Shown here: in pieces, positions 2,584 to 20,288 of the stretch
Numbering within the stretch: the first letter of the stretch is position 1
How the letters are laid out: each line of letters opens with the position of its first letter
Source of the DNA: a bacterium
GTDB taxonomy: Bacteria; Zhuqueibacterota; Zhuqueibacteria; Oceanimicrobiales; Oceanimicrobiaceae
NCBI GenBank assembly: GCA_046757025.1
Contig: JBHHXN010000090.1
Location: 1-20,657 of the forward strand
Reading direction: 5' to 3'
DNA length: 20,657 nucleotides
Notes under the pieces: model-generated
The model's input: only the letters and a program-made list of their open reading frames with translations
What the model was told of the DNA's origin: nothing
The model's database searches: none
Position numbers and translations under genes: made by a program

Positions 2584-3888
2584 ATGAGTAAGCTAAAAGC
2601 AAAATTAGCCGAAAAAATTCCTGGTTACAGGGAACGAGTAAACCGGTTGGTGAAAGAGTACGGTGATGTGGTGGTGGATCAGGTGCACATCCGCCAGTTT
2701 TATGGGGGCATGCGTGGATTAAAATCCCTGTCCACCGACATTTCGTACTTAGATCCAAACGAAGGCATCCGATTCCGAGGCTACACCATTCCGGAATGCA
2801 TGGAAAAATTGCCCAAACCGCCGGGTGCGGAAATGCCTTACGTGGAAGGCCATGTGTACCTGCTTTTGACCGGCGACATCCCCACGGAAGAAGAAGTGAA
2901 AGATGTGATTGACGATTTCAAAAAAAGAAGTAAGGTGCCGCAGTACGTATTTGAAATGCTCAATGCCCTGCCCAGAGATACGCATCCCATGAGCATGTTT
3001 TCATCTGCGGTGCTGGCCATTCAAAGAGAGTCCATCTTTGTGAAAAAATATAACGCCGGAATGAGTAAAATGGATTACTGGGATCCCATGTATGAGGATG
3101 CCATGAATCTGTTGTCAAAATTGCCTGAAATCGCCGCGCACATTTATCGCTTGAAATACAAAGATAACACCCCCATCGCTCCGGATCCCGAATTGGATTT
3201 TGGCGCGAATTTCGCGCACATGATGGGCATCGATCATCCGTACGATGAGATTTCCCGCTTGTACTTTATTCTGCACAGCGATCACGAAAGCGGCAATGTC
3301 AGCGCACACATCACACACCTGGTGGGCTCAGCCCTTTCCGACGTCTATTATTCATTTTCAGCGGGATTGAACGGGCTGGCCGGCCCCCTGCACGGTCTGG
3401 CCAATCAGGAAGTACTGCGCTGGATTCAGGATGTGATGAAGAAAATGGGCAACAAACTCCCCACGAAAGAGGAGCTGAAACAGTTCGTCTGGGACACGCT
3501 GAATTCCGGACAGGTAATTCCGGGTTACGGGCATGCGGTGCTGCGCAAAACCGATCCACGCTACACCGCGCAACGTGAATTTGCTTTAAAACATCTGCCG
3601 GACGATGAGATATTCAAACTCGTGAGTATGCTCTATGAAGTGGTGCCCCCCATTTTACAGGAACAAGGCAAAGCCAAAAATCCCTGGCCCAATGTCGATG
3701 CCCATTCCGGCGTGATTCAGTGGCACTACGGCGTCAAAGAGTATGACTTCTACACCGTCATGTTTGGCGTGGGCCGCGCCATCGGCGTGTTGAGCAATCT
3801 GATCTGGGACCGGGCTGTTGGACAGGCGCTGGAACGTCCCAAATCCTTAACCACCGACATGCTCGAAAAAATTGCCGGCATCAAGTAA
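2584..3888 (+). CDS. gltA: Citrate (Si)-synthase, eukaryotic-type
   Basis: YGGMRG, GIRFRG, SDHESGNVSAH, GLAGPLHGLANQEV, PGYGHAVLRKTDPR, WPNVDAHSG and LERPKS motifs; AAGGAAG RBS. Confidence 0.95.
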   Translation: MSKLKAKLAEKIPGYRERVNRLVKEYGDVVVDQVHIRQFYGGMRGLKSLSTDISYLDPNEGIRFRGYTIPECMEKLPKPPGAEMPYVEGHVYLLLTGDIPTEEEVKDVIDDFKKRSKVPQYVFEMLNALPRDTHPMSMFSSAVLAIQRESIFVKKYNAGMSKMDYWDPMYEDAMNLLSKLPEIAAHIYRLKYKDNTPIAPDPELDFGANFAHMMGIDHPYDEISRLYFILHSDHESGNVSAHITHLVGSALSDVYYSFSAGLNGLAGPLHGLANQEVLRWIQDVMKKMGNKLPTKEELKQFVWDTLNSGQVIPGYGHAVLRKTDPRYTAQREFALKHLPDDEIFKLVSMLYEVVPPILQEQGKAKNPWPNVDAHSGVIQWHYGVKEYDFYTVMFGVGRAIGVLSNLIWDRAVGQALERPKSLTTDMLEKIAGIK

Positions 3889-3951: not shown

Positions 3952-4490
3952 GAATATTCTATTATCTTGAAAAACTTTGTTGTTTTAACAACCTTTTTGC
4001 GGCTCTAAGTCGGGGGTGAGGGGCAGTTGAAAGAAACTGACAACCGCGGACTTTCAGGGAAACAAAGTGACAAGCGGGATTTGGCAGAAAATATTGAATC
4101 CATTCAAACGATTCTGTTTGAACATTGAAACAAACCCACAATCTAATCCCCATAACTTTCTTTAAGTGGGTTTTGTGAATGATCTCAGCCTGGTCATGAA
4201 AGTGTGCGAAAGCAAACTGCCGCAGAAAATTCTGCTTTATGACGGGAAATTCATCCGGTAATAGGTCTCCAAAGAGCCAGAGTGTGCCGTCACGCTACTG
4301 AAACGAATTTGAGATTTTGGTACCGACCCAACCAATTGCGCTTAAGGCAAGTCAAAATAAACCCCTTCAATGGAAAATTGTGAACATGAATGACTTTGTT
4401 GATAAAGTCGAAGAATCTTTTAGCATGAGGATCGATGGAAGAATAGACTTAATCAACAGAGTCATGAAGGACCTGATGAAAAATAGCCTT

Positions 4491-4509
4491 TCCCGAACTT
4501 GTTTCGGGA
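4491..4509. repeat. Short palindrome TCCCGAA-N-TTCGGGA (related copy at 2457-2476)
   Basis: TCCCGAACTTGTTTCGGGA here and TCCCGAATTTTTTTTCGGGA at 2457-2476; both are intergenic. Confidence 0.5.
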
Positions 4510-4713
4510 TTCAGGCTGAGGTGTATTTTTTCAACTAGCCATTCATACAACGAGTACCAGTCCATTAAATCAATCCGGCGTGCCGGACCGCCAACAAAAT
4601 GATCATCTGCAAATTAGCCTGAAACTTAAATTGCAATAAATGATTAAATATAAGTGAAGTCCTTCAATATCAATTATCCCAAAAGACTTTTCAACAAATG
4701 AAGGAAAAGAAGA

Positions 4714-5368: not shown

Positions 5369-7048
5369 ATGCTAAAAAAGTATTTCATGTTCACAAGTTT
5401 AGTGATTGTATTGTTTTCGATCAACACCGCAGCCCAGGAGGACTGGAAAACCTACCCCTATCACCAGCAAGGCAGCGTCATCGATTTTCCGAAAGATGAA
5501 GGCTGGCATAGGCAGATGCAAGTCGAGTGGTGGTACACCACGGCGCATGTCACCGGCGACTCCACCGGTACCGAGTACAGTTTTATGCTCACTTATTTTT
5601 ACTACCCTCCCTTTTCATTCGACGGATTTCGTATTTTCAACATCGCCAACGAAACCACCGGCGAGTTTTTTCCGGAGACTTTGCCGTACCTGGTGCGGGT
5701 CCGAGCTGAGGATCACCTGAACATTAAGGTTTTTGTGATCGGCGGTTCTCAAGAAGAATGGATAACTTTACGAGATCAAGACAATAATTTGATTCCATTT
5801 CAGTACCATATAACGGCTCATTCACAATATGGAGAAATTGACGTCTGGTATGACACCGTCAAGCGTCCGCTCATGGTTGGCGGTACGGGGTATCTTCATC
5901 TCGGTGAAAATAGCCAGACCTATTATTATTCACAAACCCTTTTGACAGTCAGGGGCAATCTCACCCTGAATGGAGTTTCGGAATCGATCAGCGGCACCGC
6001 GTGGATTGACCGGCAATATTTTGAAGCAATGGCCCCCCTGGCCGGTGAAAAGTATGAGTGGTTTAGCTGCCAGCTTTCCAACGGCATGGATTTGAATATC
6101 TGGAATATCTTCACGCCGGATAATCGTATTCCAGCTAACGAACGTTTCCGTATCTGCAGCATGTATATCGACGAGGAAACAACTGAAACGACCTCCGATT
6201 TTAGTCTGAATAGACTGCAATTTGTGTTCACACCAGACGGTGAAAGATGTTATTCGCGGAAGTGGCATTTTTCTTACAAAGATATCGATCTCACCATCAC
6301 GACTCTATTTAATGACCAGGAAGTGGTTTTACCGTTTCATTTTTACGAAGGCAGCACCCGGATTGAAGGAACCGTGAATGGCGAGGCTGTGGAAGGGGTT
6401 GGCTTCGCGGAATTGTTGCATCATTACCAGCCGCCCAGAATGCAATTGATTTTTCCAACTGCCGGCACAAACTGGAATGGCAGTCAGCCTTTTCGATGGC
6501 AGATGCTGAATCCGGACGACGGCCGGCCGATTTATTTCGATTTGGAGCTGAGTACGGACAACAAAGCGAGTTTCAGAAAACTCGCACGCGCCTTGACCGA
6601 TACCTCTTTCCTTTGGAGCCAGATCGACGTGGTCAACGGCAGCGAGTGCTGGCTGCGGGTGGTGGGTTATTCCATCGACAGCACCCTAATTGGCACCGAT
6701 GTGATGGACTCCCCATTTGTGCTCAACGTGACCAGTGTACAGGAACCCATTCAGCAGGCTGCGGTGCCGCAGAAATTGACCGCAGTGGTGCAGCCCAATC
6801 CCGGTTATTTGCAGGCTCATATTCAATTTGAGCTGTCGGTGGCTACTCAGGTGACGATACGTGTTTATAACATTCTGGGGCAGCGACTTGCCACCCTTGC
6901 GGACAACCGGCGTTTTGCAGTCGGGCGCCACGAAATAACCTGGCCGGGCCGGGATGATTCCGGCAGACCGGTGGCCAGTGGCGTGTATCTTTATCGCATC
7001 AGCACGCCGCTTCAAGTTTTGGATGGCCGGCTGGTATTTCTGCGTTGA
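5369..7048 (+). CDS. Secreted AttH/CrtC-like (lipocalin-like) domain protein with a C-terminal FlgD-Ig/secretion sorting-type domain
   Basis: Signal peptide (..NTAA|QED); FPKDEGWH, EWWY, YYYS, WIDRQ and EWFS motifs; C-terminal PNP..IRVYNILGQRLATL..W.GRD..G..VASGVYLY; AAGGAGG RBS. Confidence 0.85.
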   Translation: MLKKYFMFTSLVIVLFSINTAAQEDWKTYPYHQQGSVIDFPKDEGWHRQMQVEWWYTTAHVTGDSTGTEYSFMLTYFYYPPFSFDGFRIFNIANETTGEFFPETLPYLVRVRAEDHLNIKVFVIGGSQEEWITLRDQDNNLIPFQYHITAHSQYGEIDVWYDTVKRPLMVGGTGYLHLGENSQTYYYSQTLLTVRGNLTLNGVSESISGTAWIDRQYFEAMAPLAGEKYEWFSCQLSNGMDLNIWNIFTPDNRIPANERFRICSMYIDEETTETTSDFSLNRLQFVFTPDGERCYSRKWHFSYKDIDLTITTLFNDQEVVLPFHFYEGSTRIEGTVNGEAVEGVGFAELLHHYQPPRMQLIFPTAGTNWNGSQPFRWQMLNPDDGRPIYFDLELSTDNKASFRKLARALTDTSFLWSQIDVVNGSECWLRVVGYSIDSTLIGTDVMDSPFVLNVTSVQEPIQQAAVPQKLTAVVQPNPGYLQAHIQFELSVATQVTIRVYNILGQRLATLADNRRFAVGRHEITWPGRDDSGRPVASGVYLYRISTPLQVLDGRLVFLR

Positions 7049-9783: not shown

Positions 9784-10101
9784 GTGAACTACTGGCGTAA
9801 ACCATTGGACGCAGATAAGCTGAATTTACCCAAAGGTTTGATTCACATCGTGAAAGATCAATGTAAAGGTTGTGGTTTTTGCGTTGAGTATTGTCCGAAA
9901 GAGGTATTAGAGCTCTCCGATGAATTTAATATCAAGGGCTACCACCCGCCGGTGGTGGTGCAGGAAGACGAGTGTGTCTATTGTAAACTTTGCGAGATCA
10001 TTTGTCCGGAATTCTCAATTTTTGTTACTCAGAAAAAGAGTACGGAAAAACCAGAAAAACCCGTTGCGGCGAGAAAGGAGGCGGAGAAAATTGAAAGCTA
10101 A
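9784..10101 (+). CDS. korD: 2-oxoacid:ferredoxin oxidoreductase delta subunit (2x[4Fe-4S])
   Basis: CKGCGFCVEYCP, FNIKGYHP and CVYCKLCEIICPEF motifs; GGAGG RBS before a GTG start. Confidence 0.85.
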   Translation: MNYWRKPLDADKLNLPKGLIHIVKDQCKGCGFCVEYCPKEVLELSDEFNIKGYHPPVVVQEDECVYCKLCEIICPEFSIFVTQKKSTEKPEKPVAARKEAEKIES

Positions 10102-11248
10102 ACCGAATGGCGTTTTGACCGGGTCGCACTATTTAGATGGCGACCACGCTTGTGCCGAGGGCGCGCTGGCAGCCGGCTGCCGTTTTTTTGCTGGCTATCC
10201 CATTACCCCCTCCACGGAAGTCGCCGAACGCATTGTAGCACGTTTTCCCATGGTCGGTGGTATATTCATTCAAGTTGAAGACGAACTGGGTGCCATGGCC
10301 GCGGTGCTTGGAGCGGCCTGGGCAGGCAAAAAATCCATGACCGTGACCTCCGGGCCGGGATTCTCGCTGATGATGGAGAATCTGGGGCTGGGTACCATGA
10401 TGGAAGTGCCCTGCGTACTGGTGAATGTTCAGCGCGGCGGACCTTCTACCGGTCTTCCTACCATGGTTGGTCAGGCCGATATGATGCAGGCCCGGTGGGG
10501 TTCCCACGGCGATTATGAAATCATCGCGCTGTGTCCGGCCTCGCCCCAGGAAGCGTTCGATTATACCATTAAAGCCTTTAATCTCTCGGAAAAATACCGC
10601 GTGCCCACGCTGTTGATGATGGATGAGTGCGTGGGGCACATGACCGAAAAAGTCGTGATTCCCTCTGCCGAAGAAATCAACATTTTTCCGCGCCGGCTTT
10701 CCAAGTTGCCGCCGGATGAATACCTGCCGTATGTACCCGGAAAAGACCTGGTGCCGGACATGATTACGGCGGGTGAAGGTTACAAAATTCACACCACCGG
10801 CCTCACCCACGATGAAAGAGGTTATCCGGTCATGAGTCCCGAAGTTCAAAACGAGCTGGTAAAGAGACTCATGGACAAAATCAATAAAAACGCCGACGTC
10901 ATCATCGAAATCGAAGAAGAAAACACCGACGACGCCGACGTCATCGTCATGGCTTACGGCATCACTGCACGGGTTACCCAGCCGGCTATCGCTAAAGCCA
11001 GAGAAAACGGCATCAAGGTAGGTTTTATCAAGATGATTACTGTCTGGCCGTTCCCGGAAAAACGGGTAAAGCAACTTGCTGAAAAAGTCAAAGCGTTTGT
11101 CATGCCCGAGATCAACATGGGACAGATGGTGTTGGAATTGGAACGCGTGGTTGGCGGGAGAGCAAAAACGTTTCATGTGCCGCATGCCGGCGGCTGGGTG
11201 CATGAACCAGATGACATTTACAAGGTAATTGAGGAGGCCGTAAAATGA
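10091..11248 (+). CDS. korA: 2-oxoacid:ferredoxin oxidoreductase alpha subunit
   Basis: AGYPITPSTE, QVEDE, TSGPGFSLM and QRGGPSTGLPT motifs. Start reassigned to TTG 10091 after AAGGAGGCGGAG; the extension from 9920 only overlaps korD. Confidence 0.92.
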   Translation: MKAKPNGVLTGSHYLDGDHACAEGALAAGCRFFAGYPITPSTEVAERIVARFPMVGGIFIQVEDELGAMAAVLGAAWAGKKSMTVTSGPGFSLMMENLGLGTMMEVPCVLVNVQRGGPSTGLPTMVGQADMMQARWGSHGDYEIIALCPASPQEAFDYTIKAFNLSEKYRVPTLLMMDECVGHMTEKVVIPSAEEINIFPRRLSKLPPDEYLPYVPGKDLVPDMITAGEGYKIHTTGLTHDERGYPVMSPEVQNELVKRLMDKINKNADVIIEIEEENTDDADVIVMAYGITARVTQPAIAKARENGIKVGFIKMITVWPFPEKRVKQLAEKVKAFVMPEINMGQMVLELERVVGGRAKTFHVPHAGGWVHEPDDIYKVIEEAVK

Positions 11249-12150
11249 CAACAGTTGCAGAAAAAATGAAACACGAACATCCCATGGGTGACTATTTGCG
11301 CATGGACCGAATTCCGCACATCTGGTGCCCAACCTGCGGCATCGGCACGGTGGTGACTTGTTTTGTAACCGCGCTGCAAAAATTCGATTATCCGCTGGAA
11401 AAAGTCGCCATTGTCTCGGGTATCGGTTGTACCGGCCGCGTCGCCGGCTACGTGAAATTGGATTCCTTTCACACTACCCACGGACGGGCGATTCCGTTTG
11501 CCACCGGTCTGAAGCTGGGGAATCCGGATTTGAAAGTGGTGGTGTTCAGCGGCGACGGGGATTTGTCCGCCATTGGCGGCAACCATTTGATTCATGCCGC
11601 CCGCCGCAATATGGATTTGACGGTCATTTGTGTCAATAATTTTATCTACGCCATGACCGGCGGTCAGGTGGCGCCTACCACGCCGATTACCGCCAATAGT
11701 TCTACCTCGCCGTACGGCAACTTCGAGCAGCCGTTTAACCTGCCGTCTCTGGTGGCCACCTGTGGCGCGGTGTATGTGGCCCGCTGGACCGCTTTGCATA
11801 TTCGCAGATTGACGAATTCGATTTTAGAGGCCCTGAATAAAAAGGGCTTTTCTTTTGTGGAAGCTATTTGTCCCTGTCCAACCTTGTACGCCCGAAGAAA
11901 CAAACTGGGTACCGGTCTGGACCTGATGAAATTTTATCATGACAATAGTGAAATTCAACATGGCGCGGATCCGGATTCTGTGGACATTGAATTTCAAGAT
12001 AAAATCGTCGTGGGTAAATTTATCGATCGCGAGCGCCCGACCTTTGTCGATGCCTGGAACGAGGGTCACAAAAAGAAGTTTGGAGATAAATTTCAACCGT
12101 ATGGGGGGTCCGAAAACGGCGCCCTGGCTGACGGAACGGCGAAGAAATAA
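11245..12150 (+). CDS. korB: 2-oxoacid:ferredoxin oxidoreductase beta subunit (TPP-binding)
   Basis: WCPTCG, SGIGC, HGRA, GDGD..IGGNH and NN..YAMTGGQ motifs; ATGA overlap with korA. Confidence 0.93.
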   Translation: MTTVAEKMKHEHPMGDYLRMDRIPHIWCPTCGIGTVVTCFVTALQKFDYPLEKVAIVSGIGCTGRVAGYVKLDSFHTTHGRAIPFATGLKLGNPDLKVVVFSGDGDLSAIGGNHLIHAARRNMDLTVICVNNFIYAMTGGQVAPTTPITANSSTSPYGNFEQPFNLPSLVATCGAVYVARWTALHIRRLTNSILEALNKKGFSFVEAICPCPTLYARRNKLGTGLDLMKFYHDNSEIQHGADPDSVDIEFQDKIVVGKFIDRERPTFVDAWNEGHKKKFGDKFQPYGGSENGALADGTAKK

Positions 12151-12168
12151 ATATCAGGAGTGCTTAAT

Positions 12169-12732
12169 ATGAGCAGAACAGAAATTAGAGTCACCGGTTA
12201 TGGCGGACAGGGCGTCATCCTATGTGGTTACATTATCGGTAAATCAGCCGCGCTGTTTGCAAATAAACATGCAACCTTGAACCAGAGCTTTGGGCCGGAA
12301 GCCCGCGGCAGCGCTTGCAGTGCGCAAGTGATTGTCTCGGATGAAGACGTACTTTATCCGTACATGCGCCAGCCTGACATTATGATCGCCATGTCACAGG
12401 AGGCGTATTCCAAATATGAACCCGAGTTGAAAAATGATGGTCTGTTACTTGTTGACGAGGACCTGGTGAAGCTGGGAAAAGTCAGGGACAACATTAAAAC
12501 CTATTCAGTACCCGCTACCCGAATAGCGGAGCAATTGGGTAGAAAAATTGTCTTGAATATTGTGATGCTGGGCTTTTTTACTGCCATTTCCCAGCTCATC
12601 GACGTTGAAGCCGTGCGCAAAGCCGTGCAATCATCCGTTCCCAAAGGCACCGAAGAGCTGAATTTGCGCGCGTTCGAGAGCGGCTATGAATATGGTATGG
12701 AAAAGTTGAAAAACGGAGAAAAGAAAAACTAA
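12169..12732 (+). CDS. korC: 2-oxoacid:ferredoxin oxidoreductase gamma subunit
   Basis: GYGGQG, SFGPEARG, NIVMLG and NLRAF motifs; ATG 12169 lies 8 nt after AGGAG. Confidence 0.9.
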   Translation: MSRTEIRVTGYGGQGVILCGYIIGKSAALFANKHATLNQSFGPEARGSACSAQVIVSDEDVLYPYMRQPDIMIAMSQEAYSKYEPELKNDGLLLVDEDLVKLGKVRDNIKTYSVPATRIAEQLGRKIVLNIVMLGFFTAISQLIDVEAVRKAVQSSVPKGTEELNLRAFESGYEYGMEKLKNGEKKN

Positions 12733-13181: not shown

Positions 13182-15560
13182 ATGCAAAAAGGGCAAGCCA
13201 ATCCTCCAATCCAGAAAATTTTAGAAAAGAAAGAGGTCACCCTTTCCATCAACGAGCAGGTCAATCAGCAGTACACTGTGGGTAAAATCGAACCTTCCCC
13301 CTGCATGACCGCCTGCCCGGCGGGGGTCAATGTCAAATCTTATGTGTCGCTCATCGCCTCTGGCAAGTTCCACGAAGCGCTGGAAGTGGTTAGAGAGCGT
13401 AATCCATTCCCGGGCATCTGCGGACGCGTTTGTACCCACCCCTGTGAGTCGTACTGCAATCGCAACGAAGTGGATGCAGCGGTGGCGATATGTTGGCTGA
13501 AACGCTTTGTGGCCGATTACGAGCTGCAGAATCCCCCACAAAAAACCAAACCGCTGCCGCAAACCCGCAAAGAACAAATTGCCATCATCGGCTCGGGTCC
13601 GGCGGGATTGACCGCCGCTAACGATCTGATCAGAAAAGGCTTTGGCGTAACCGTGTTTGAAGCGCTGGCAGAACCGGGCGGCATGTTGACCTCAGGCATT
13701 CCATCCTTTCGGCTGCCCAGGGATGTCATTCAAACCGAAGTCAATGCCATCAAAAATTTAGGCGTTAAAATCAAAACCAACACGCGCCTGGCTGGTAAAA
13801 AGGCCATCGACGGTTTATTCGAAAAGGGCTTCAACGCGGTCTTTCTGGCGGTGGGGGCGCACAAAGGCTTGAAGCTGGGCATCCCGGGCGAAGAAAAATA
13901 CCAGGGGGTGTTGGACGGCATCTCGTTTTTAAAAGAAGTCAATGTGGGCAACCCGGTCAAGTTGGGCAAACGGGTGGCCATCATCGGCGGCGGCAATTCT
14001 GCCATCGACGCTTCCCGCACCGCCCGGCGTCTGGGCTGCGATGAAGTCACCATCGTTTACCGGCGCTCACGCGAAGAGATGCCGGCCAACGAGCTGGAAA
14101 TTCAGGAAGCGGAGCACGAAGGCGTTAAAATTCAATATCTGGCGGCGCCGGTGGAATTGGTGGGCAAAAACAAACGATTGACCGACATGGTTTGCACCAG
14201 GATGAAATTGGGCAAGCCGGATGCCAGCGGTCGCCGCCGGCCCATTGCCATCGAAGGTTCGGAATTTACCATCGAACTCGACAACGTCATCGCCGCCATC
14301 AGCCAGCAGCCGGACCTGTCTTTTCTGCCGCAAGATCACGGCATGGACATTTCCCGGTGGCATACGTTTTCAGTGGATGAATCAACGCTGGCCACTTCTC
14401 GTGAAGGCGTGTTTGCCGGGGGCGACGCCGTGACCGGGCCGAACACGGTGATCGACGCCATCGCCGCCGGGCACGTGGCGGCCCGTTCCATCGAGCGTTA
14501 TTTGAACCGCGAGCCTTTGCAACAAGAACTGACATCCGACCGACCCTACGAAACCGAGATCAAAATTGATCTCAAAAAACAGGACAAGAAAAAACGCGCG
14601 GCCATGCCCAAAATCCCGGCAAAGGATTTGACCAACAATTTCGCGGAAGTGGAGCTGGGATTCAACGAAGCCACGGCCATGGCAGAGGCCATGCGCTGTC
14701 TGCGCTGCGGCCCGTGCAGCGAGTGTTTCCTGTGTGTACCGGAATGCCAGAAAAACGTCACCGTGCTTACCACCGCCGACGACGACGGGCGCGCCGATGA
14801 AGTTCTGCTGAGGCTGCCCGCCGATTTTGACGCGGAAGAATTGAAAAATGCGCACAATCAGGGTATCTTGCATGCGGGCAAAAAAGGCGGTTTCACCGTG
14901 GAAACGCATCCGGTGAGCTGTTTTGTGAAAGAAGAAGTATGCCGCGGCTGCGGCGATTGCGTCACGGTTTGCGAATATTCGGCCGCCATTCTGCTGCCCA
15001 AAGAAAACGGGCTGTTTGTTTCAAGAATCGATGATACCATCTGCAAAGGGTGCGGCACCTGTGTTTCCATCTGTCCTTCCAGTGCCATCGAGCAAAACTA
15101 TTTCACCGACGATTGGCTGCAAAGCAAATTGCAAACCCTGACCACGGACAAAAAGAATGTGGTGGTTTTCACCTGCAACTGGTATGGTTCGCACCAGGAT
15201 CGCTCGGTTTTCGCGGAAATCGACAAAAAAGACCTGAACCTTTTGTTCATTCGTACGACTTGCTCCGGCCGCATCGAACCTTCGTATATTTTGAAGTCGT
15301 TTGAATATGGCGCGGCTGGCGTGCTGGTGGTGGGCTGCCCCATGAACAAATGCCATTACGGTTTCGGAAACAAATACGCGGATGAACATTTCGGGAGAGT
15401 GCAAAATATGTTGAACATACTCGGATTTACTTCGGAAAAATTCCAGTGGACCTGGCCGGAAGACGACCAGGTCAGGCATTTCCAAAATGCGGTAAATTTA
15501 TTTCTGGAGAGCATCCGAGTGGGAGAAGTGGTGGATAACGTTGTGGAGGTGTCAAATTAA
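13182..15560 (+). CDS. GltD/NfnB-like FAD/NAD(P)H oxidoreductase fused to a 2x[4Fe-4S] ferredoxin domain and an MvhD-like [2Fe-2S] domain
   Basis: PCMTACP, GRVCTHPCE..C, IIGSGPAG, IIGGGNSA.D, YRRS, FAGGD and EA.RCLRCG motifs; two CxxCxxCxxxC motifs; C-terminal FTCNW..CSGRI..GC....CHY; GGAGG RBS. Confidence 0.88.
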   Translation: MQKGQANPPIQKILEKKEVTLSINEQVNQQYTVGKIEPSPCMTACPAGVNVKSYVSLIASGKFHEALEVVRERNPFPGICGRVCTHPCESYCNRNEVDAAVAICWLKRFVADYELQNPPQKTKPLPQTRKEQIAIIGSGPAGLTAANDLIRKGFGVTVFEALAEPGGMLTSGIPSFRLPRDVIQTEVNAIKNLGVKIKTNTRLAGKKAIDGLFEKGFNAVFLAVGAHKGLKLGIPGEEKYQGVLDGISFLKEVNVGNPVKLGKRVAIIGGGNSAIDASRTARRLGCDEVTIVYRRSREEMPANELEIQEAEHEGVKIQYLAAPVELVGKNKRLTDMVCTRMKLGKPDASGRRRPIAIEGSEFTIELDNVIAAISQQPDLSFLPQDHGMDISRWHTFSVDESTLATSREGVFAGGDAVTGPNTVIDAIAAGHVAARSIERYLNREPLQQELTSDRPYETEIKIDLKKQDKKKRAAMPKIPAKDLTNNFAEVELGFNEATAMAEAMRCLRCGPCSECFLCVPECQKNVTVLTTADDDGRADEVLLRLPADFDAEELKNAHNQGILHAGKKGGFTVETHPVSCFVKEEVCRGCGDCVTVCEYSAAILLPKENGLFVSRIDDTICKGCGTCVSICPSSAIEQNYFTDDWLQSKLQTLTTDKKNVVVFTCNWYGSHQDRSVFAEIDKKDLNLLFIRTTCSGRIEPSYILKSFEYGAAGVLVVGCPMNKCHYGFGNKYADEHFGRVQNMLNILGFTSEKFQWTWPEDDQVRHFQNAVNLFLESIRVGEVVDNVVEVSN

Positions 15561-15822: not shown

Positions 15823-16182
15823 ATGCAAGAATATCTTGACGCCATTCACCGCCGGGTTTGTTCCTTATGTATCGACGCCATACTGGACAGCCAACAAAAC
15901 TTTATGCGATGTGGTTTGCCATCGGAGCGTTCGTGTCCCATCGAAAGCTATCTCAATCAGGTCATCGAGGTGGTACAAACTGTTGAGAGTCCCTGGATGG
16001 TCGATTATATCAACGTGGTGCGGGACAAAATTTGCGCCAATTGTGAGGAAAACGAAGAGGGGATTTGTGATTTAAGATTGAAAGCGGATTGCCCTTTGGA
16101 TCGGTATATCATGCTGGTGGCCGGCGCCATTGAAGAAGTCATGGGCCAGCGTTCGACAAATCCTGAACAGATGACCTATTAA
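15823..16182 (+). CDS. Hypothetical protein with a duplicated 4-Cys motif
   Basis: GAGGTG RBS; two repeats, Cx2Cx13Cx7CPIExYL and Cx2Cx7Cx7CPLDxYI. Confidence 0.8.
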   Translation: MQEYLDAIHRRVCSLCIDAILDSQQNFMRCGLPSERSCPIESYLNQVIEVVQTVESPWMVDYINVVRDKICANCEENEEGICDLRLKADCPLDRYIMLVAGAIEEVMGQRSTNPEQMTY

Positions 16183-16295: not shown

Positions 16296-17444
16296 ATGGC
16301 AGAGATTGCTGAAACCGTAAAAAAAACCAATGCCTCCTTCTGTTTGGAGTGCGGTAAATGCTCGGCGGCCTGCCCGGTGGCACAGGTCAATGACAGCTAC
16401 TCCCCGAGAAGAATGGTGTCGCATTCTTTGCAGCAGTCAAGCGACGATGTGGTGTTCGACCCCATGCTCTGGGCTTGTTTGACCTGCAAAAATTGCGAAG
16501 CCGGCTGCCCGGCTGACGTGGATTACAGCACGCTCACTCTGGGAATTCGTTCCCAGGCCAAGCAGGTGGGGCAGACCGCCCTGTGCTCACACGGCGGCGC
16601 CCTGCAATCGCTCATGCGCATCATGACCGCACCCGACCTCAATCAGCAAAGATTAAATTGGGTGAACGACGATCTGAAAATTGCGCAGGAGGGAGAGGTG
16701 CTGTACTTTGTGGGCTGTGCGCCTTATTTCGATGCGTTTTTCGCGGATCTGGGTGTGCGCACTCTCGATGCATCAAAGAGCGTGGTCAAGCTTTTGAACA
16801 ACGTGGGCATCGAACCGGTGTTGATGGCAGATGAACGATGCTGCGGACACGACCTGCTGTGGAGCGGCGATGAAGAAAATTTCAAAAAACTGGCTCAGAA
16901 AAATATCGAGACCATCCAAAAGACCGGCGCCAAAAAAGTGGTGTTTTCCTGCCCGGAATGTTACCGCACCCTGCAGGAAGATTATCCCGCGCACTTCGGC
17001 GCCCTGGGTTTCGATTCGTTTCACATCTCGGAGTTCATCTCGGATAAATTGCAATCGAAAGAAGTCATGTTTCCCACTAACAACCGCGATCTGCAGGCGA
17101 CTTTTCAGGACCCATGCCGGCTTGGTCGCCATCTCGGGGTGTATGAGGCGCCGCGGCAGGTGCTGTCCAATTTGCCGGGGGTTACATTTAATGAGATGCC
17201 TAAAAATAGCCAGAGAGCGGTTTGCTGCGGGGTGAGCAATTGGATGAACTGCACGACTTTTTCCAAACAGATTCAGGTGCAACGGCTGCGCCAGGCCAAG
17301 GCCACTGGCGCCGACACCCTGATCACGGCCTGTCCCAAATGTGAAATTCATTTTCGATGCGCCATGAAAGATCAAAATCTGGGTGCGGAAATCACCATGG
17401 ATATCAAAAACATTGCGACCATTGCAGCAGAATCTTTACCCTGA
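16296..17444 (+). CDS. HdrD-like Fe-S oxidoreductase (HdrC-like 2x[4Fe-4S] plus two CCG domains)
   Basis: CLECGKCSAACP and CLTCKNCEAGCP; YFVGC..CCG..CPEC and QDPC..CCG..CPKC; AAGGA RBS. Confidence 0.88.
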   Translation: MAEIAETVKKTNASFCLECGKCSAACPVAQVNDSYSPRRMVSHSLQQSSDDVVFDPMLWACLTCKNCEAGCPADVDYSTLTLGIRSQAKQVGQTALCSHGGALQSLMRIMTAPDLNQQRLNWVNDDLKIAQEGEVLYFVGCAPYFDAFFADLGVRTLDASKSVVKLLNNVGIEPVLMADERCCGHDLLWSGDEENFKKLAQKNIETIQKTGAKKVVFSCPECYRTLQEDYPAHFGALGFDSFHISEFISDKLQSKEVMFPTNNRDLQATFQDPCRLGRHLGVYEAPRQVLSNLPGVTFNEMPKNSQRAVCCGVSNWMNCTTFSKQIQVQRLRQAKATGADTLITACPKCEIHFRCAMKDQNLGAEITMDIKNIATIAAESLP

Positions 17445-17473: not shown

Positions 17474-17739
17474 GTAACTATTCAGGTGTCACTCCTGCGA
17501 ATGCAGGAGTCTCCCGATTCAATGGCAATAAGTGAGAAAAGAATTCATAGCGTTCAATCAAGTAAAAACATGTTCAGGTAGAGGAATTATGGAAACATAC
17601 TGCGTGTACATGAGGGCAAATCAACATAATAACGAGCTTACATCAGTGTCACGAACAATCTTTTTCCACAATTGTTTAAATGGATGTCAAAGGAGATTCC
17701 TGCATTCGCAGGAATGACAGCTCTGTGCTGAATAGTTAC
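17474..17739. mobile_element. 266-bp MITE-like element with 12-bp TIRs enclosing a pair of REP-like hairpins
   Basis: GTAACTATTCAG (17474-85) and CTGAATAGTTAC (17728-39) are perfect inverted repeats. Inner 28-bp inverted palindromes lie at 17487-17514 and 17692-17719. The flanking 8-mers AACAAAAC and CAAAAAAC match at 6 of 8 positions. Confidence 0.75.
17589..17662 (+). pseudogene. N-terminal remnant of a GIY-YIG nuclease gene
   Basis: ATG 17589 gives METYCVYMRANQHNNEL; a -1 shift at about 17639 continues YISVTNNL. This matches the Y-x-V-Y-I...LYIGVTNNL signature with a G-to-S change. The rest of the gene is missing. Confidence 0.65.
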
Positions 17740-17819
17740 CAAAAAACTTAATAAATGTATGCAATTTCTTTCGTTTCAAAATGGCGTAAATAATGAACTA
17801 ATAAATGGAGGCGAATGAT

Positions 17820-20288
17820 ATGACTGGCACCAACACGGACCAGGATATCCGAATCGGTGTTTTTGTGTGTGACTGCGGCTTGAACATCGCCGGGGTAGTT
17901 GATACCCAGGCGGTAGCCGAATACGCTAAAACTCTGAAAAACGTGGTGGCGGTGGTACGCAATAAATACACTTGCGCGGACCCCGGACAAAATGAAATCA
18001 AAAAAGCCATTGCCGAATACAACCTCAATCGAGTGGTGGTGGCTTCCTGTACCCCCAAGATTCACGAGCACACTTTTCGGCACTGTGTGGAAGACGCGGG
18101 TATGAACCCCTATCTCATGGAAATGGCCAATATCCGTGAGCACTGTAGCTGGGTGCATCAAACCGAAAAAGCCGCGGCCACCGAGAAGGCCATGAATTTA
18201 GTGCGCAGCGCGGTTTTCAGAGCGCAGCTTTTGGAACCGCAGGTGGAGCCGGTATTTCCAGTGACTCAGGCGGCGCTGATCATCGGCGGCGGCGTCGCCG
18301 GCATTCAGGCCGCCCTGGACACCGCGGACGCGGGTCATCAGGTCTATCTGGTGGAAAAGGAACCGTCCATCGGCGGCATCATGGCGGCCATCGACAAGAC
18401 CTACCCCACCATGGACTGCAGTATATGAATTCTCGGTCCGAAAATGATGGATGTCGGTCGGCATCCCAAGATTAAGCTTCTCACCAACAGTGAAATAGAA
18501 AATGTCACCGGATTCGTTGGTAACTTCAAAGTCACGGTGCGCAAAAAAGCCCGGTATGTTGACGAAAATGAATGTACCGCCTGTGGTGACTGTGAAACCG
18601 TGTGTCCGGTGGCGGTAGTCGATGAGTACCAGCAGGGCTTTTCTTCCCGCAAAGCCATTTACATCCCCTTCCCACAGGCCGTGCCTTCTTCCTACATTTT
18701 GGACATGGACAACTGCCTGGGTACCAACCCCATTGCCTGCGGAAAATGTGCCGAGGCCTGTGAGAAAAAGTGTATCGATTACGACGTACAGGATGAGTTC
18801 ATCGACCTGGAAGTCGGCACGGTTATCGTGGCCACGGGCATGCAGCCGTACGATCCCACGGAAATGGACGAATACGGTTACCGTAAATTTGAAAATGTCA
18901 TCACCAGTATGGAGTTTGAGCGCTTGATCTGCGCCGGCGGTCCCACCGAAGGTCATTTCTTTCGACCGACAGATAGAAAGACGCCAAAAAGCGTGGCGTT
19001 TGTGCAGTGTGTAGGCTCGCGCTCATTGAACCGTGGTGTGCCGTACTGCAGCAATATTTGTTGTATGAACACCGTGAAGGATACCTTGCTTCTGCACGAT
19101 CACTATCCCGACCTGCAGAGCAAAGTATTTTATATGGACATCCGCTCGTTTGGCAAGGGCTTTGAAGATCTTTACCGTCGAAGCAAAGAAAGCGGCGTGC
19201 AGTACATTCGCGGACTGCCCGGCGAAATCGAGGAAGATCCCATCACCAAAAATCTGATCCTGACGGTGGAGAATACCCTCGAAGGCCGGCTTGAAAAGCA
19301 CGAAGTGGATATGGTGGTGCTGGCTGTGGGGCTGATTCCGCGGGTGGACAGCCAGTTCATTCGCCAACTGTTGACGCTGTCGAAAACCTCCGACGGTTTC
19401 GTCATGGAAGCGCACCCCAAGCTGAAGCCGGTGGACGCTCCCACCAAAGGCGTCTATTTCGCCGGTTGTGTGGAAGCGCCCAAGGACATCAAGGACAGCG
19501 TGACCCAGGCCAGCGCGGCGGTGGCGCGCTCCAGCATTCTACTCAATGCCGGTGAAGTGAAAATCGAAGCCATCACCTCGATTATCAACGAAGATATGTG
19601 CAATTTCTGCGGCCGCTGTGTGCGCGTGTGTCCGTTTCACGCGGTGACGCCCACCAGTAAAAAGGAGAACATTTTTCCAAAGATCATCGAGGCGGCTTGT
19701 GCCGGCTGCGGTACCTGCGCAGCAGAGTGTACCACCGATGCCATCAGCATGCGGCACTTTAACGATGCCCAGTACTACGCCCAGATCGACGCGATTCTCG
19801 AAGATCGACCGATGGATAAAATCGTGACCTTTGCCTGCAACTGGTGTTCCTATGCCGGCGGCGATAATGCCGGAACTTCGCGTTTACAATATCCACCTAA
19901 TGTCCGCTTAATTCGCACCATGTGCAGCGGCCGGGTGGACGAAGATTTTATCCTGCACGCATTCAAAAAAGGCGCTCCCATCGTGCTGGTTTCTGGCTGT
20001 CATTTTTCGGATTGCCATTATATCGACGCCGTTACCTGGACGCAGCAACGGGTGGAAAAACTCTGGGATAAATTGGAAAAGATGGGCATTCGGCCTGAGC
20101 GTTTGCAGTTGGAGTGGATCAGCGCCGCCGAAGGCCAGAAATTTGCCCGGGTCATGCGGGAAGTGGAGCAATTGCGGCTGCAGGTCACACCGGAAGAAGT
20201 GCAATTTACCATGAGTGTTTTGAGCAACGGCAAAATGTCACAAAAGAAAAAACCAGCTAAAAAGGAGGTTTTGGAGGTGATCAACTAA
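17820..20288 (+). CDS. hdrA: Selenocysteine-containing heterodisulfide reductase subunit A fused to MvhD (822 aa, Sec at TGA 18426-18428)
   Basis: ORFs 17805-18428 and 18444-20288 are in one frame and read KTYPTMDCSI-U-ILGPKM across the TGA, at the conserved HdrA CxxC position. Other motifs: CDCG.NIAG, NIREHCSWVH, GGGVAG, QCVGSR..YCS.ICC, and C-terminal FACNWCSY/MCSGRV/GCH..DCHY/WISAAEG. ATG 17820 lies 8 nt after GGAGG. Confidence 0.92.
18449..18466 (+). promoter_or_regulatory. Bacterial SECIS element
   Basis: GGATGTC-GGTC-GGCATCC forms a 7-bp stem with a G-led GGUC loop, 27 nt after the in-frame UGA. Confidence 0.8.

Follow-up and report, generated by a model that had tools for sequence, protein, structure and literature searches.

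A fused hdrA-mvhD gene of a Zhuqueibacterota bacterium with a predicted selenocysteine codon followed by a conserved SECIS-type hairpin

We describe a gene on a 20,657-nucleotide (nt) stretch of bacterial DNA (GenBank assembly GCA_046757025.1, contig JBHHXN010000090.1; lineage Zhuqueibacterota), here called the window, which is the whole of contig C90 in a genome that is 94.8% complete. Positions 17820–20288 of the forward strand hold, with high probability, a single hdrA-mvhD fusion in which an internal UGA is read as selenocysteine (Sec) by means of a conserved hairpin, yielding an 822-residue predicted bifurcating flavoprotein that likely docks on an HdrD-like protein. We infer that this TGA very likely encodes Sec, because all four Sec genes are present in the genome and the TGA is retained together with the hairpin in 70 of the 80 orthologous loci.

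Translation of the frame 17820–20288 gives 822 residues with one internal stop only, the TGA at 18426–18428 within PTMDCSI*ILGPKMMDVGRHP (asterisk, stop), which confirms the single in-frame TGA that the original prediction had reported in the motif TMDCSI*ILGPKM and makes it residue 203. Under translation table 11 the gene splits into open reading frames (ORFs) of 207 and 614 amino acids (aa), the two broken genes that automated annotation had been expected to give. Exact look-ups of both window pieces in a public protein collection found no entry; the 614-aa downstream piece of one orthologue (L039) is listed in a public collection as a separate protein. The predicted start at ATG 17820 is better than the 17805 of the ORF finder, because a GGAGG sits 8 nt upstream of it. 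The gene and the elements around its recoded codon are:

17820–20288, + strand: hdrA::mvhD, read through UGA, of type Ia / HdrA2 architecture (translation; NCBIfam NF040770; matches to PDB 5odc_A and 5odc_D).
17807–17811, + strand: Shine-Dalgarno-like GGAGG, 8 nt 5' of ATG 17820 (from sequence).
18417–18428, + strand: C200-x-x-U203 motif, TGC AGT ATA TGA (C194/C197 of 5ODC chain A).
18423–18425, + strand: Ile202 codon ATA, directly 5' of the UGA, invariant among Sec orthologues.
18426–18428, + strand: in-frame TGA, predicted Sec203 (translation, alignment, orthologues).
18449–18466, + strand: bacterial Sec insertion sequence (SECIS) hairpin, 7-bp stem 18449–18455/18460–18466, GGUC loop 18456–18459 (folding, conservation).

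The TGA is not an assembly slip. Contigs from four of four public runs span 18426–18428 with at least 31 letters on each side and no alternative letter; these are contigs rather than raw reads, come from one study that possibly includes the source sample, and are not independent. Stronger evidence for a genuine TGA comes from the orthologues. Twenty of 60 relatives have an orthologue covering the site (69–90% identity), with TGA in all 20, and four more distant HdrA genes of relatives have TGC or TGT there and no such hairpin. A scan of GTDB genomes, one pattern of which was the peptide KMMDVGRH and thus selected peptide rather than codons, confirmed 596 stretches; the best 80 were used as orthologous loci, and comprise 70 with TGA and 10 with Cys. 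By record title, the closest named matches include candidate division KSB1, then Zixibacteria, Chloroflexota, Eisenbacteria, Krumholzibacteria, Acidobacteriota and others. The relatives' set (n = 20) and the GTDB set (n = 80) overlap and are not additive. A decayed hdrA remnant at the end of contig C279 lends some colour to the idea of a pseudogene whose TGA arose by nonsense mutation or misassembly, but the same TGA recurs in 70 of the 80 loci across many phyla, the 619 codons 3' of it are open with all Fe-S cysteines kept, and the run contigs all read TGA, so that this explanation is extremely improbable.

Decoding as Sec is consistent with the rest of the genome. The original prediction implied selA, selB, selC and selD elsewhere in the genome, and all four were found outside the window: selA on C1 (580.8 bits, above cut-off), selB on C73 and, adjoining it, a selD with its own in-frame TGA (C73:4425), both above cut-off, and tRNA-Sec on C28 (ARAGORN; Rfam RF01852). 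Among relatives, selA exceeds its cut-off in 56 of 61, and among the genomes of the 80 loci in 42 of 44 tested (32/34 TGA-type, 10/10 Cys-type). The alternative that UGA is read as Cys or Trp, through near-cognate read-through or a reassigned code, gains something from the tolerance of Cys at this site in orthologues; we nevertheless judge it very unlikely, since TGA is an ordinary stop that terminates 914 of 2493 long ORFs of the genome, tRNA-Trp has the anticodon CCA, the sole TCA-anticodon tRNA found is tRNA-Sec, and the conserved hairpin is of the SelB type. The genome has further genes with an in-frame TGA that belong to known selenoprotein types, namely SelD, a NiFe hydrogenase large subunit and AhpC/TSA-, deiodinase- and CMD/AhpD-like proteins. 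Seven TGA candidates were scanned, four of which have Pfam matches, two have none but show plausible motifs, and one is noise-like.

As observations on the wider genome, further selenoprotein sites are likely at C73:4425, C158, C37:17630, C53:27918, C45:10758, C27:6348, C6:86952 and C45:3935. They encode the types just named, the hydrogenase being a NiFe(Se) large subunit, and in addition a c554-containing multihaem protein (motif CGU) and two proteins that Pfam does not match (motifs TMTUGC and NYUVGC). A second selD, of the Cys type and without TGA, forms the C-terminal part of a 755-aa ORF (C344:188–2452), the N-terminus of which resembles cysteine desulfurase.

The hairpin GGAUGUC-GGUC-GGCAUCC that had been predicted after the TGA was located with its loop 27 nt 3' of the UGA and a minimum free energy of about -9.6 kcal/mol. 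Its 4-nt GGUC loop, 7-bp stem, spacing and energy fit the bacterial SECIS constraints of PMC13188914. Stem pairs 2–7 and the GGU of the loop are kept in 70/70 Sec orthologues and in 22/22 neighbouring Sec HdrL-type genes; among the ten Cys orthologues, which encode the same MDVGRHP peptide, one has the stem, one the loop and none both. Inside the hairpin GAT, GGT and CAT never vary, and codons just 5' of it vary freely. The single variable stem pair is U-A, U-G or C-G and thus compensating, with C-A in 0 of 89 rows against 14.5 expected under independence, an expectation that treats the rows as independent though kin are related; at least 18 state changes are needed on the tree. RNAalifold on a 32-sequence subset recovers exactly the hairpin 18449–18466, with 99.1% of cells pairing and slid controls dropping to 21–57%, and the covariation score is matched by 7 of 500 shuffles. 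It is this conservation that lifts the hairpin above chance, energy alone proving nothing. With its Cys orthologues as the natural negative control, the gene is a particularly clear case of a bacterial SECIS. A search of the window with Rfam at gathering scores returned no family.

Several observations weigh against reading the TGA as Sec. Folding stability had to be rejected as evidence for the hairpin, as it does not exceed that of shuffled sequences (z of 0.36, 0.76, -0.99 and 0.64 in four windows), and five of the seven stem pairs are invariant and hence silent on covariation. Of 99 coding-looking TGA sites in the genome, 12 also got through a bSECIS-like filter, several of them evident noise. 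The ten Cys controls form one clade and so amount to one event rather than ten. Two TGA-type genomes lack selA above cut-off (a partial match in G073, none in G085), and genome G007, 76% complete, gave no selA. Genome-wide SECIS scans proved too blunt as a tool, missing SelD and the hydrogenase and passing noise (for example on C188).

We also considered that the TGA is a true stop and that HdrA is made as chains of 202 and 614 aa, with re-initiation at ATG 18444 or 18447. Two ATGs do lie 15–21 nt after the TGA, split HdrA genes are reported for Desulfobacterium autotrophicum in PMC2702500, and the invariant ATA-TGA creates an ATGA overlap. Such a split would, however, cut inside the FAD domain and delete the equivalent of the conserved Cys197. 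The FAD-binding GGGVAG motif lies 5' of the UGA, and the 614-aa ORF alone would be without it. Between the TGA and the ATGs, five codons keep their amino acids (ILGPK) while their third positions vary freely. Only genes with the TGA have a frozen hairpin, and the frame that starts in the ATGA overlap is anything from 5 to 119 codons long, which rules out a conserved overlapping peptide. Taken as a whole, a split gene is very improbable, and a single Sec-containing chain is preferred.

The Cys orthologues are of Dehalococcoidia type (loci L087, L089, L091, L093, L099, L100, L103, L110, L111 and L112), with a decayed hairpin. Their clade is nested among the Sec genes in all three trees, which probably reflects one Sec-to-Cys change, although the AU test is not significant and Sec monophyly is not rejected (p-AU 0.222). 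Loss of the Sec machinery from their genomes was ruled out by selA above cut-off in 10/10. Matched Sec and Cys orthologues of one gene open a route into the role of the HdrA Cys-Sec pair (PMC13518236).

A further feature of the site is the Ile codon directly 5' of the UGA, which is ATA in the window and in 70/70 Sec orthologues, compared with 292 of the 2239 Ile codons at other sites of these genes and 7202 of 72793 across the long ORFs of the genome. The Cys orthologues have ATA at this site in 3 of 10, though ATA is common in them anyway (104/254). Neighbouring Sec HdrL-type genes have ATA before the UGA in 17 of 22, and more distant HdrL-type paralogues have ATA in 5 and ATC in 9 of 14; ATT was never observed before the Sec codon in these sets. 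ATC in the distant paralogues and in 5 of the 22 neighbouring genes rules out an ATA frozen across all HdrA-family Sec genes, and C or G in seven of eight other candidate sites rules out an A before UGA as a general Sec context of the genome. Our best guess for the invariant ATA is an effect of the P-site tRNA on termination or slippage. A weak search of open-access literature, including passages of PMC4513850 and PMC13326102, found no description of an invariant ATA before UGA.

At the protein level, the product scores 1165.6 bits against NCBIfam NF040770 (HdrA2, HdrA-MvhD fusion; cut-off 1100) and has the full HdrA2 set of an N-terminal Fe-S region, a FAD/TrxR domain, inserted and C-terminal ferredoxin domains and a fused MvhD. 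Pfam likewise finds FAD-binding and several 4Fe-4S domains and a C-terminal FlpD/MvhD domain (PF02662, residues 668–783). The best solved relative is PDB 5ODC chain A, collinear over residues 9–662 (E 4e-232), and MvhD chains (5odc_D) match residues 666–782. The domains and key residues are:

18285–18302, + strand: FAD-binding GGGVAG motif, 5' of the UGA (Pfam).
18573–18773, + strand: inserted 2x[4Fe-4S] ferredoxin domain, C252–C318 (Pfam, 5ODC alignment).
18918–19079, + strand: E367 and K420, with cluster cysteines C397, C410, C414 and C415 (5ODC alignment; roles from PMC12054007).
19599–19730, + strand: C-terminal 2x[4Fe-4S] ferredoxin domain, C594–C637 (Pfam).
19821–20168, + strand: fused MvhD/FlpD [2Fe-2S] domain, all Cys (C673, C676, C702, C727, C732; Pfam).

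C200 and U203 align to C194 and C197 of 5ODC chain A, and U203 corresponds to Sec197 of Methanococcus maripaludis HdrA by the same numbering. E367 and K420 correspond to E356 and K409 of 5ODC, as counted on the alignment, and are invariant in the orthologue alignment; in PMC12054007 this pair is taken to mark a bifurcating flavin site. The fused MvhD keeps its Cys (CNWC), as had been predicted, and contains no second TGA. Also borne out is the claim that the TGA occupies a position that is Cys in HdrA, which aligns to Cys197 of 5ODC and is TGT or TGC in orthologues. Its description as an Fe-S ligand region stands in part: it agrees with one published reading, in which residue 197 is a partner-subunit ligand to the N-terminal cluster (PMC9012536), but a 2026 cryo-EM study sees a Cys-Sec bridge at residue 197 that may relay electrons and calls its role unresolved (PMC13518236). 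A single-sequence AlphaFold model of the whole hdrA::mvhD product was unusable (mean pLDDT 36.9).

Upstream of hdrA::mvhD lie genes for predicted partners:

16296–17444, + strand: HdrD-like protein with 2x[4Fe-4S] and two CCG domains, which is predicted to be the high-potential-arm partner (Pfam; complex model).
13182–15560, + strand: GltD-like NAD(P)H flavoprotein with fused ferredoxin and MvhD domains, through which electrons probably enter (Pfam, NCBIfam).
9784–12732, + strand: four-subunit 2-oxoacid:ferredoxin oxidoreductase, delta, alpha, beta and gamma (NCBIfam).

Both CCG domains of the HdrD-like protein retain their cysteines; of the oxidoreductase subunits, alpha lies above the PRK08659 cut-off and beta, gamma and delta below theirs (NCBIfam). 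We viewed the 80 loci with 6-kb flanks, many of which stop at contig ends. An HdrD-like gene occurs within 6 kb in 71 loci, at least one oxoacid oxidoreductase subunit in 42 and a GltD-like domain in 22. Many loci have a larger Sec HdrL-type gene ~5 kb upstream with the same SECIS hairpin (22 rows over the 80 loci; they include L043–L060, L066, L073, L075, L094, L096, L101 and L115), and in many this gene and a free mvhD take the GltD-like position, where the window's family has GltD::MvhD without Sec. HdrB was not found in the genome, either with a protein query or with TIGR03288 at E 1e-30 (HdrC was not searched for separately), and the genome's CCG domains occur only in longer fusions. An HdrB-like match appears in 1 of 20 family relatives, and in one of the nine family genomes with a full Sec orthologue, the present genome included.

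A complex model of HdrA residues 204–580 with the HdrD-like protein scored 0.79, the best of three controls reaching 0.00, with at least 98% of contacts shared between runs and a partner pLDDT of at least 87. Among solved complexes, 116 of 157 reach the mark used here, against 2 of 215 mismatched pairs; as our own alignments were used, these counts apply only approximately. The modelled interface joins the cluster-bearing face of HdrA (~397–405, 465–491) to the ferredoxin domain of HdrD (15–39, 69–74), in the docking mode in which HdrC or BamD would sit, suggesting that HdrA likely docks on the upstream HdrD-like protein.

Not all of the context favours such a partnership. The complex score may reflect memory of HdrA-HdrC and BamE-BamD structures, and the modelled HdrA chain is without residues 1–203. 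HdrB lies within 6 kb in 27 and HdrC in 24 of the 80 loci, and therefore HdrD need not be the partner there. Between hdrD and hdrA is a 375-nt gap with a repeated element, so that the two genes need not be co-transcribed. This element (17474–17739, 266 nt) has 31-nt inverted arms at 17484–17514 and 17692–17722 plus 12-nt outer arms, and we take it to be a REP/MITE-type repeat. Related, mostly longer copies sit on many contigs (71 BLAST rows for element and arm), one of them adjoining the tRNA-Sec gene on C28. Scans for promoters and terminators found about as many as chance would give.

We also considered a reading in which Sec is inserted but no single bifurcating complex forms with the HdrD-like and GltD-like neighbours. 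The protein would then serve another partner from elsewhere in the genome, for example a hydrogenase or a formate dehydrogenase, or its tie to the oxoacid oxidoreductase would go no further than co-regulation; we give this reading somewhat less than an even chance. It draws on the gap and mobile repeat 5' of hdrA, on the accompaniment of the gene by HdrCB in about a third of the loci, on a second GltD::MvhD (69% identical) and HdrD-like gene at C279:1–4643 beside only a frameshifted, truncated hdrA remnant (~4347–4556), and on two NiFe hydrogenase large subunits elsewhere in the genome, neither beside hdr genes. Set against it are the frequency of a nearby HdrD-like gene, the failure to find HdrB in this genome and the complex model, in which HdrD sets its HdrC-like domain against the face of HdrA that bears the clusters. 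In addition, the hydrogenases resemble the membrane-bound and sulfhydrogenase types, as judged from their neighbours and without formal classification. A link to sulfate respiration or to Rnf was rejected, as the genome gave no dsrA match and no rnfC above cut-off.

With the HdrD-like protein as the preferred partner, the gene would work in three steps. First, SelB-GTP-Sec-tRNA would bind the GGUC-capped hairpin at 18449–18466 and deliver Sec at the UGA at 18426, failing which termination would leave a 202-residue stub; from established bacterial Sec biology, SelB-directed insertion is nearly certain. Second, Sec203 would work with Cys200 at a site lying between FAD and N-terminal Fe-S cluster, where it would either coordinate the cluster as a partner-subunit ligand or form a selenylsulfide that relays electrons on the low-potential arm; homology makes this placement quite probable. 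Third, NAD(P)H electrons would enter via the GltD-like::MvhD protein and be split at the FAD, where K420 and E367 are kept; one branch would lead to ferredoxin, which the neighbouring 2-oxoacid:ferredoxin oxidoreductase would use as well, and the other through the HdrD-like protein to a high-potential acceptor, perhaps a disulfide or an electron-transferring flavoprotein (ETF) as in the benzoyl-CoA reductase complex. Gene context and the model put the odds of this HdrBC-independent bifurcating complex at about even. Two ETF pairs occur in the genome.

For the clade at large (KSB1, Zixibacteria, Chloroflexota, Eisenbacteria, Krumholzibacteria, Marinimicrobia-type and others), a bolder joint reading is tentative and rather doubtful: an uncharacterised HdrBC-independent bifurcating complex, made of Sec-HdrA::MvhD, HdrD and a protein for NAD(P)H input and coupled to a 2-oxoacid:ferredoxin oxidoreductase, together with Sec insertion that requires the rare P-site AUA codon ahead of the UGA as a second cis signal in addition to the hairpin.

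Sec-HdrA and the HdrA-MvhD fusion have both long been described, and the gene is an ordinary addition to its family rather than a new kind of biology. That Sec-HdrA is a known selenoprotein family, as the original prediction held, is established for bacteria and archaea (PMC1794560, PMC5029168, PMC2702500), with 103 HdrA selenoproteins in 42 organisms counted in PMC5029168 and HdrA-MvhD fusions of Methanosarcina and Archaeoglobus noted in PMC2702500. Sec-HdrA of M. maripaludis (Sec197; PMC13518236) and Cys-HdrA of Methanothermococcus thermolithotrophicus (5ODC, Cys197) share with our gene the CxxC/U position, the FAD residues and the ferredoxin domains; unlike in methanogen HdrA, MvhD is fused here, the SECIS is of the bacterial in-frame type and HdrB was not found. 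CoM-S-S-CoB is an unlikely substrate, because the host, judged from the named organisms closest to it, is no methanogen. The HdrA2 / type Ia fusion (NF040770; PMC12054007) has the same domain order, and the family cut-off is passed, but our gene carries Sec, and in its bacterial clade it is accompanied by genes for HdrD-like proteins and oxoacid oxidoreductase rather than placed in an hdrA2B2C2 setting.

Closer in context are the clusters of D. autotrophicum and Syntrophobacter, in which, according to PMC2702500 and PMC1794560, a bacterial Sec-HdrA likewise stands beside mvhD, hdrD and an NADH-binding HdrL/GltD-type protein; here, in contrast, dsrA was not found, a four-subunit oxoacid oxidoreductase is linked and MvhD keeps its Cys. 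BamDEF of class II benzoyl-CoA reductase (bioRxiv 10.64898/2026.04.10.717634) also places an HdrA-type flavoprotein on an HdrD-like (HdrCB-fusion) subunit, and a CxxC disulfide of BamE between flavin and Fe-S cluster has been proposed there as a relay. In that system it is the MvhD-like BamF that carries Sec, whereas the HdrA-type CxxC has two Cys, the reverse of hdrA::mvhD here, and BamE is a double HdrA where our protein is a single HdrA unit of 822 aa. The window holds no BamBC genes; the genome was not searched for bamB. The hdr-korABCD-flx cluster of the reductive tricarboxylic acid cycle in a Riftia symbiont (PMC11636981) also combines a four-subunit 2-oxoglutarate-type oxidoreductase with hdr genes, with bifurcation proposed, but has HdrBC, Flx and ATP-citrate lyase where the window has an HdrD-like protein, GltD::MvhD, citrate synthase and malate dehydrogenase.

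A literature search for KSB1 with heterodisulfide reductase gave nothing on this gene by title or start of abstract, and passages of PMC5736913 and bioRxiv 10.1101/2024.09.26.615249 contain nothing specific to it; the clade may already figure in selenoprotein database tables. As gene callers split Sec-hdrA, HdrA is under-counted in metabolic reconstructions of these uncultured anaerobes, an effect already noted for methanogens (PMC12054007), and the conserved oxoacid-oxidoreductase/Hdr gene cluster is a candidate module.

Several minor observations concern other genes. A DsrC/TusE-like gene (C24:13393–13686) belongs to an unrelated sulfur-transfer cluster, flanked by two genes that we named by eye, one DsrE-like and the other, which is split over two frames, sulfide:quinone oxidoreductase-like. 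Inside the window's cluster, a 119-aa ORF (15823–16182) has eight cysteines and no Pfam or NCBIfam match, with related ORFs in only 2–3 of the 80 loci. The citrate synthase of the window (2584–3888) is of the eukaryotic-like type (TIGR01793 above cut-off), with malate dehydrogenase upstream (1291–2250), and 5369–7048 encodes a secreted-looking CrtC/lipocalin-fold protein with a C-terminal FlgD-Ig domain.

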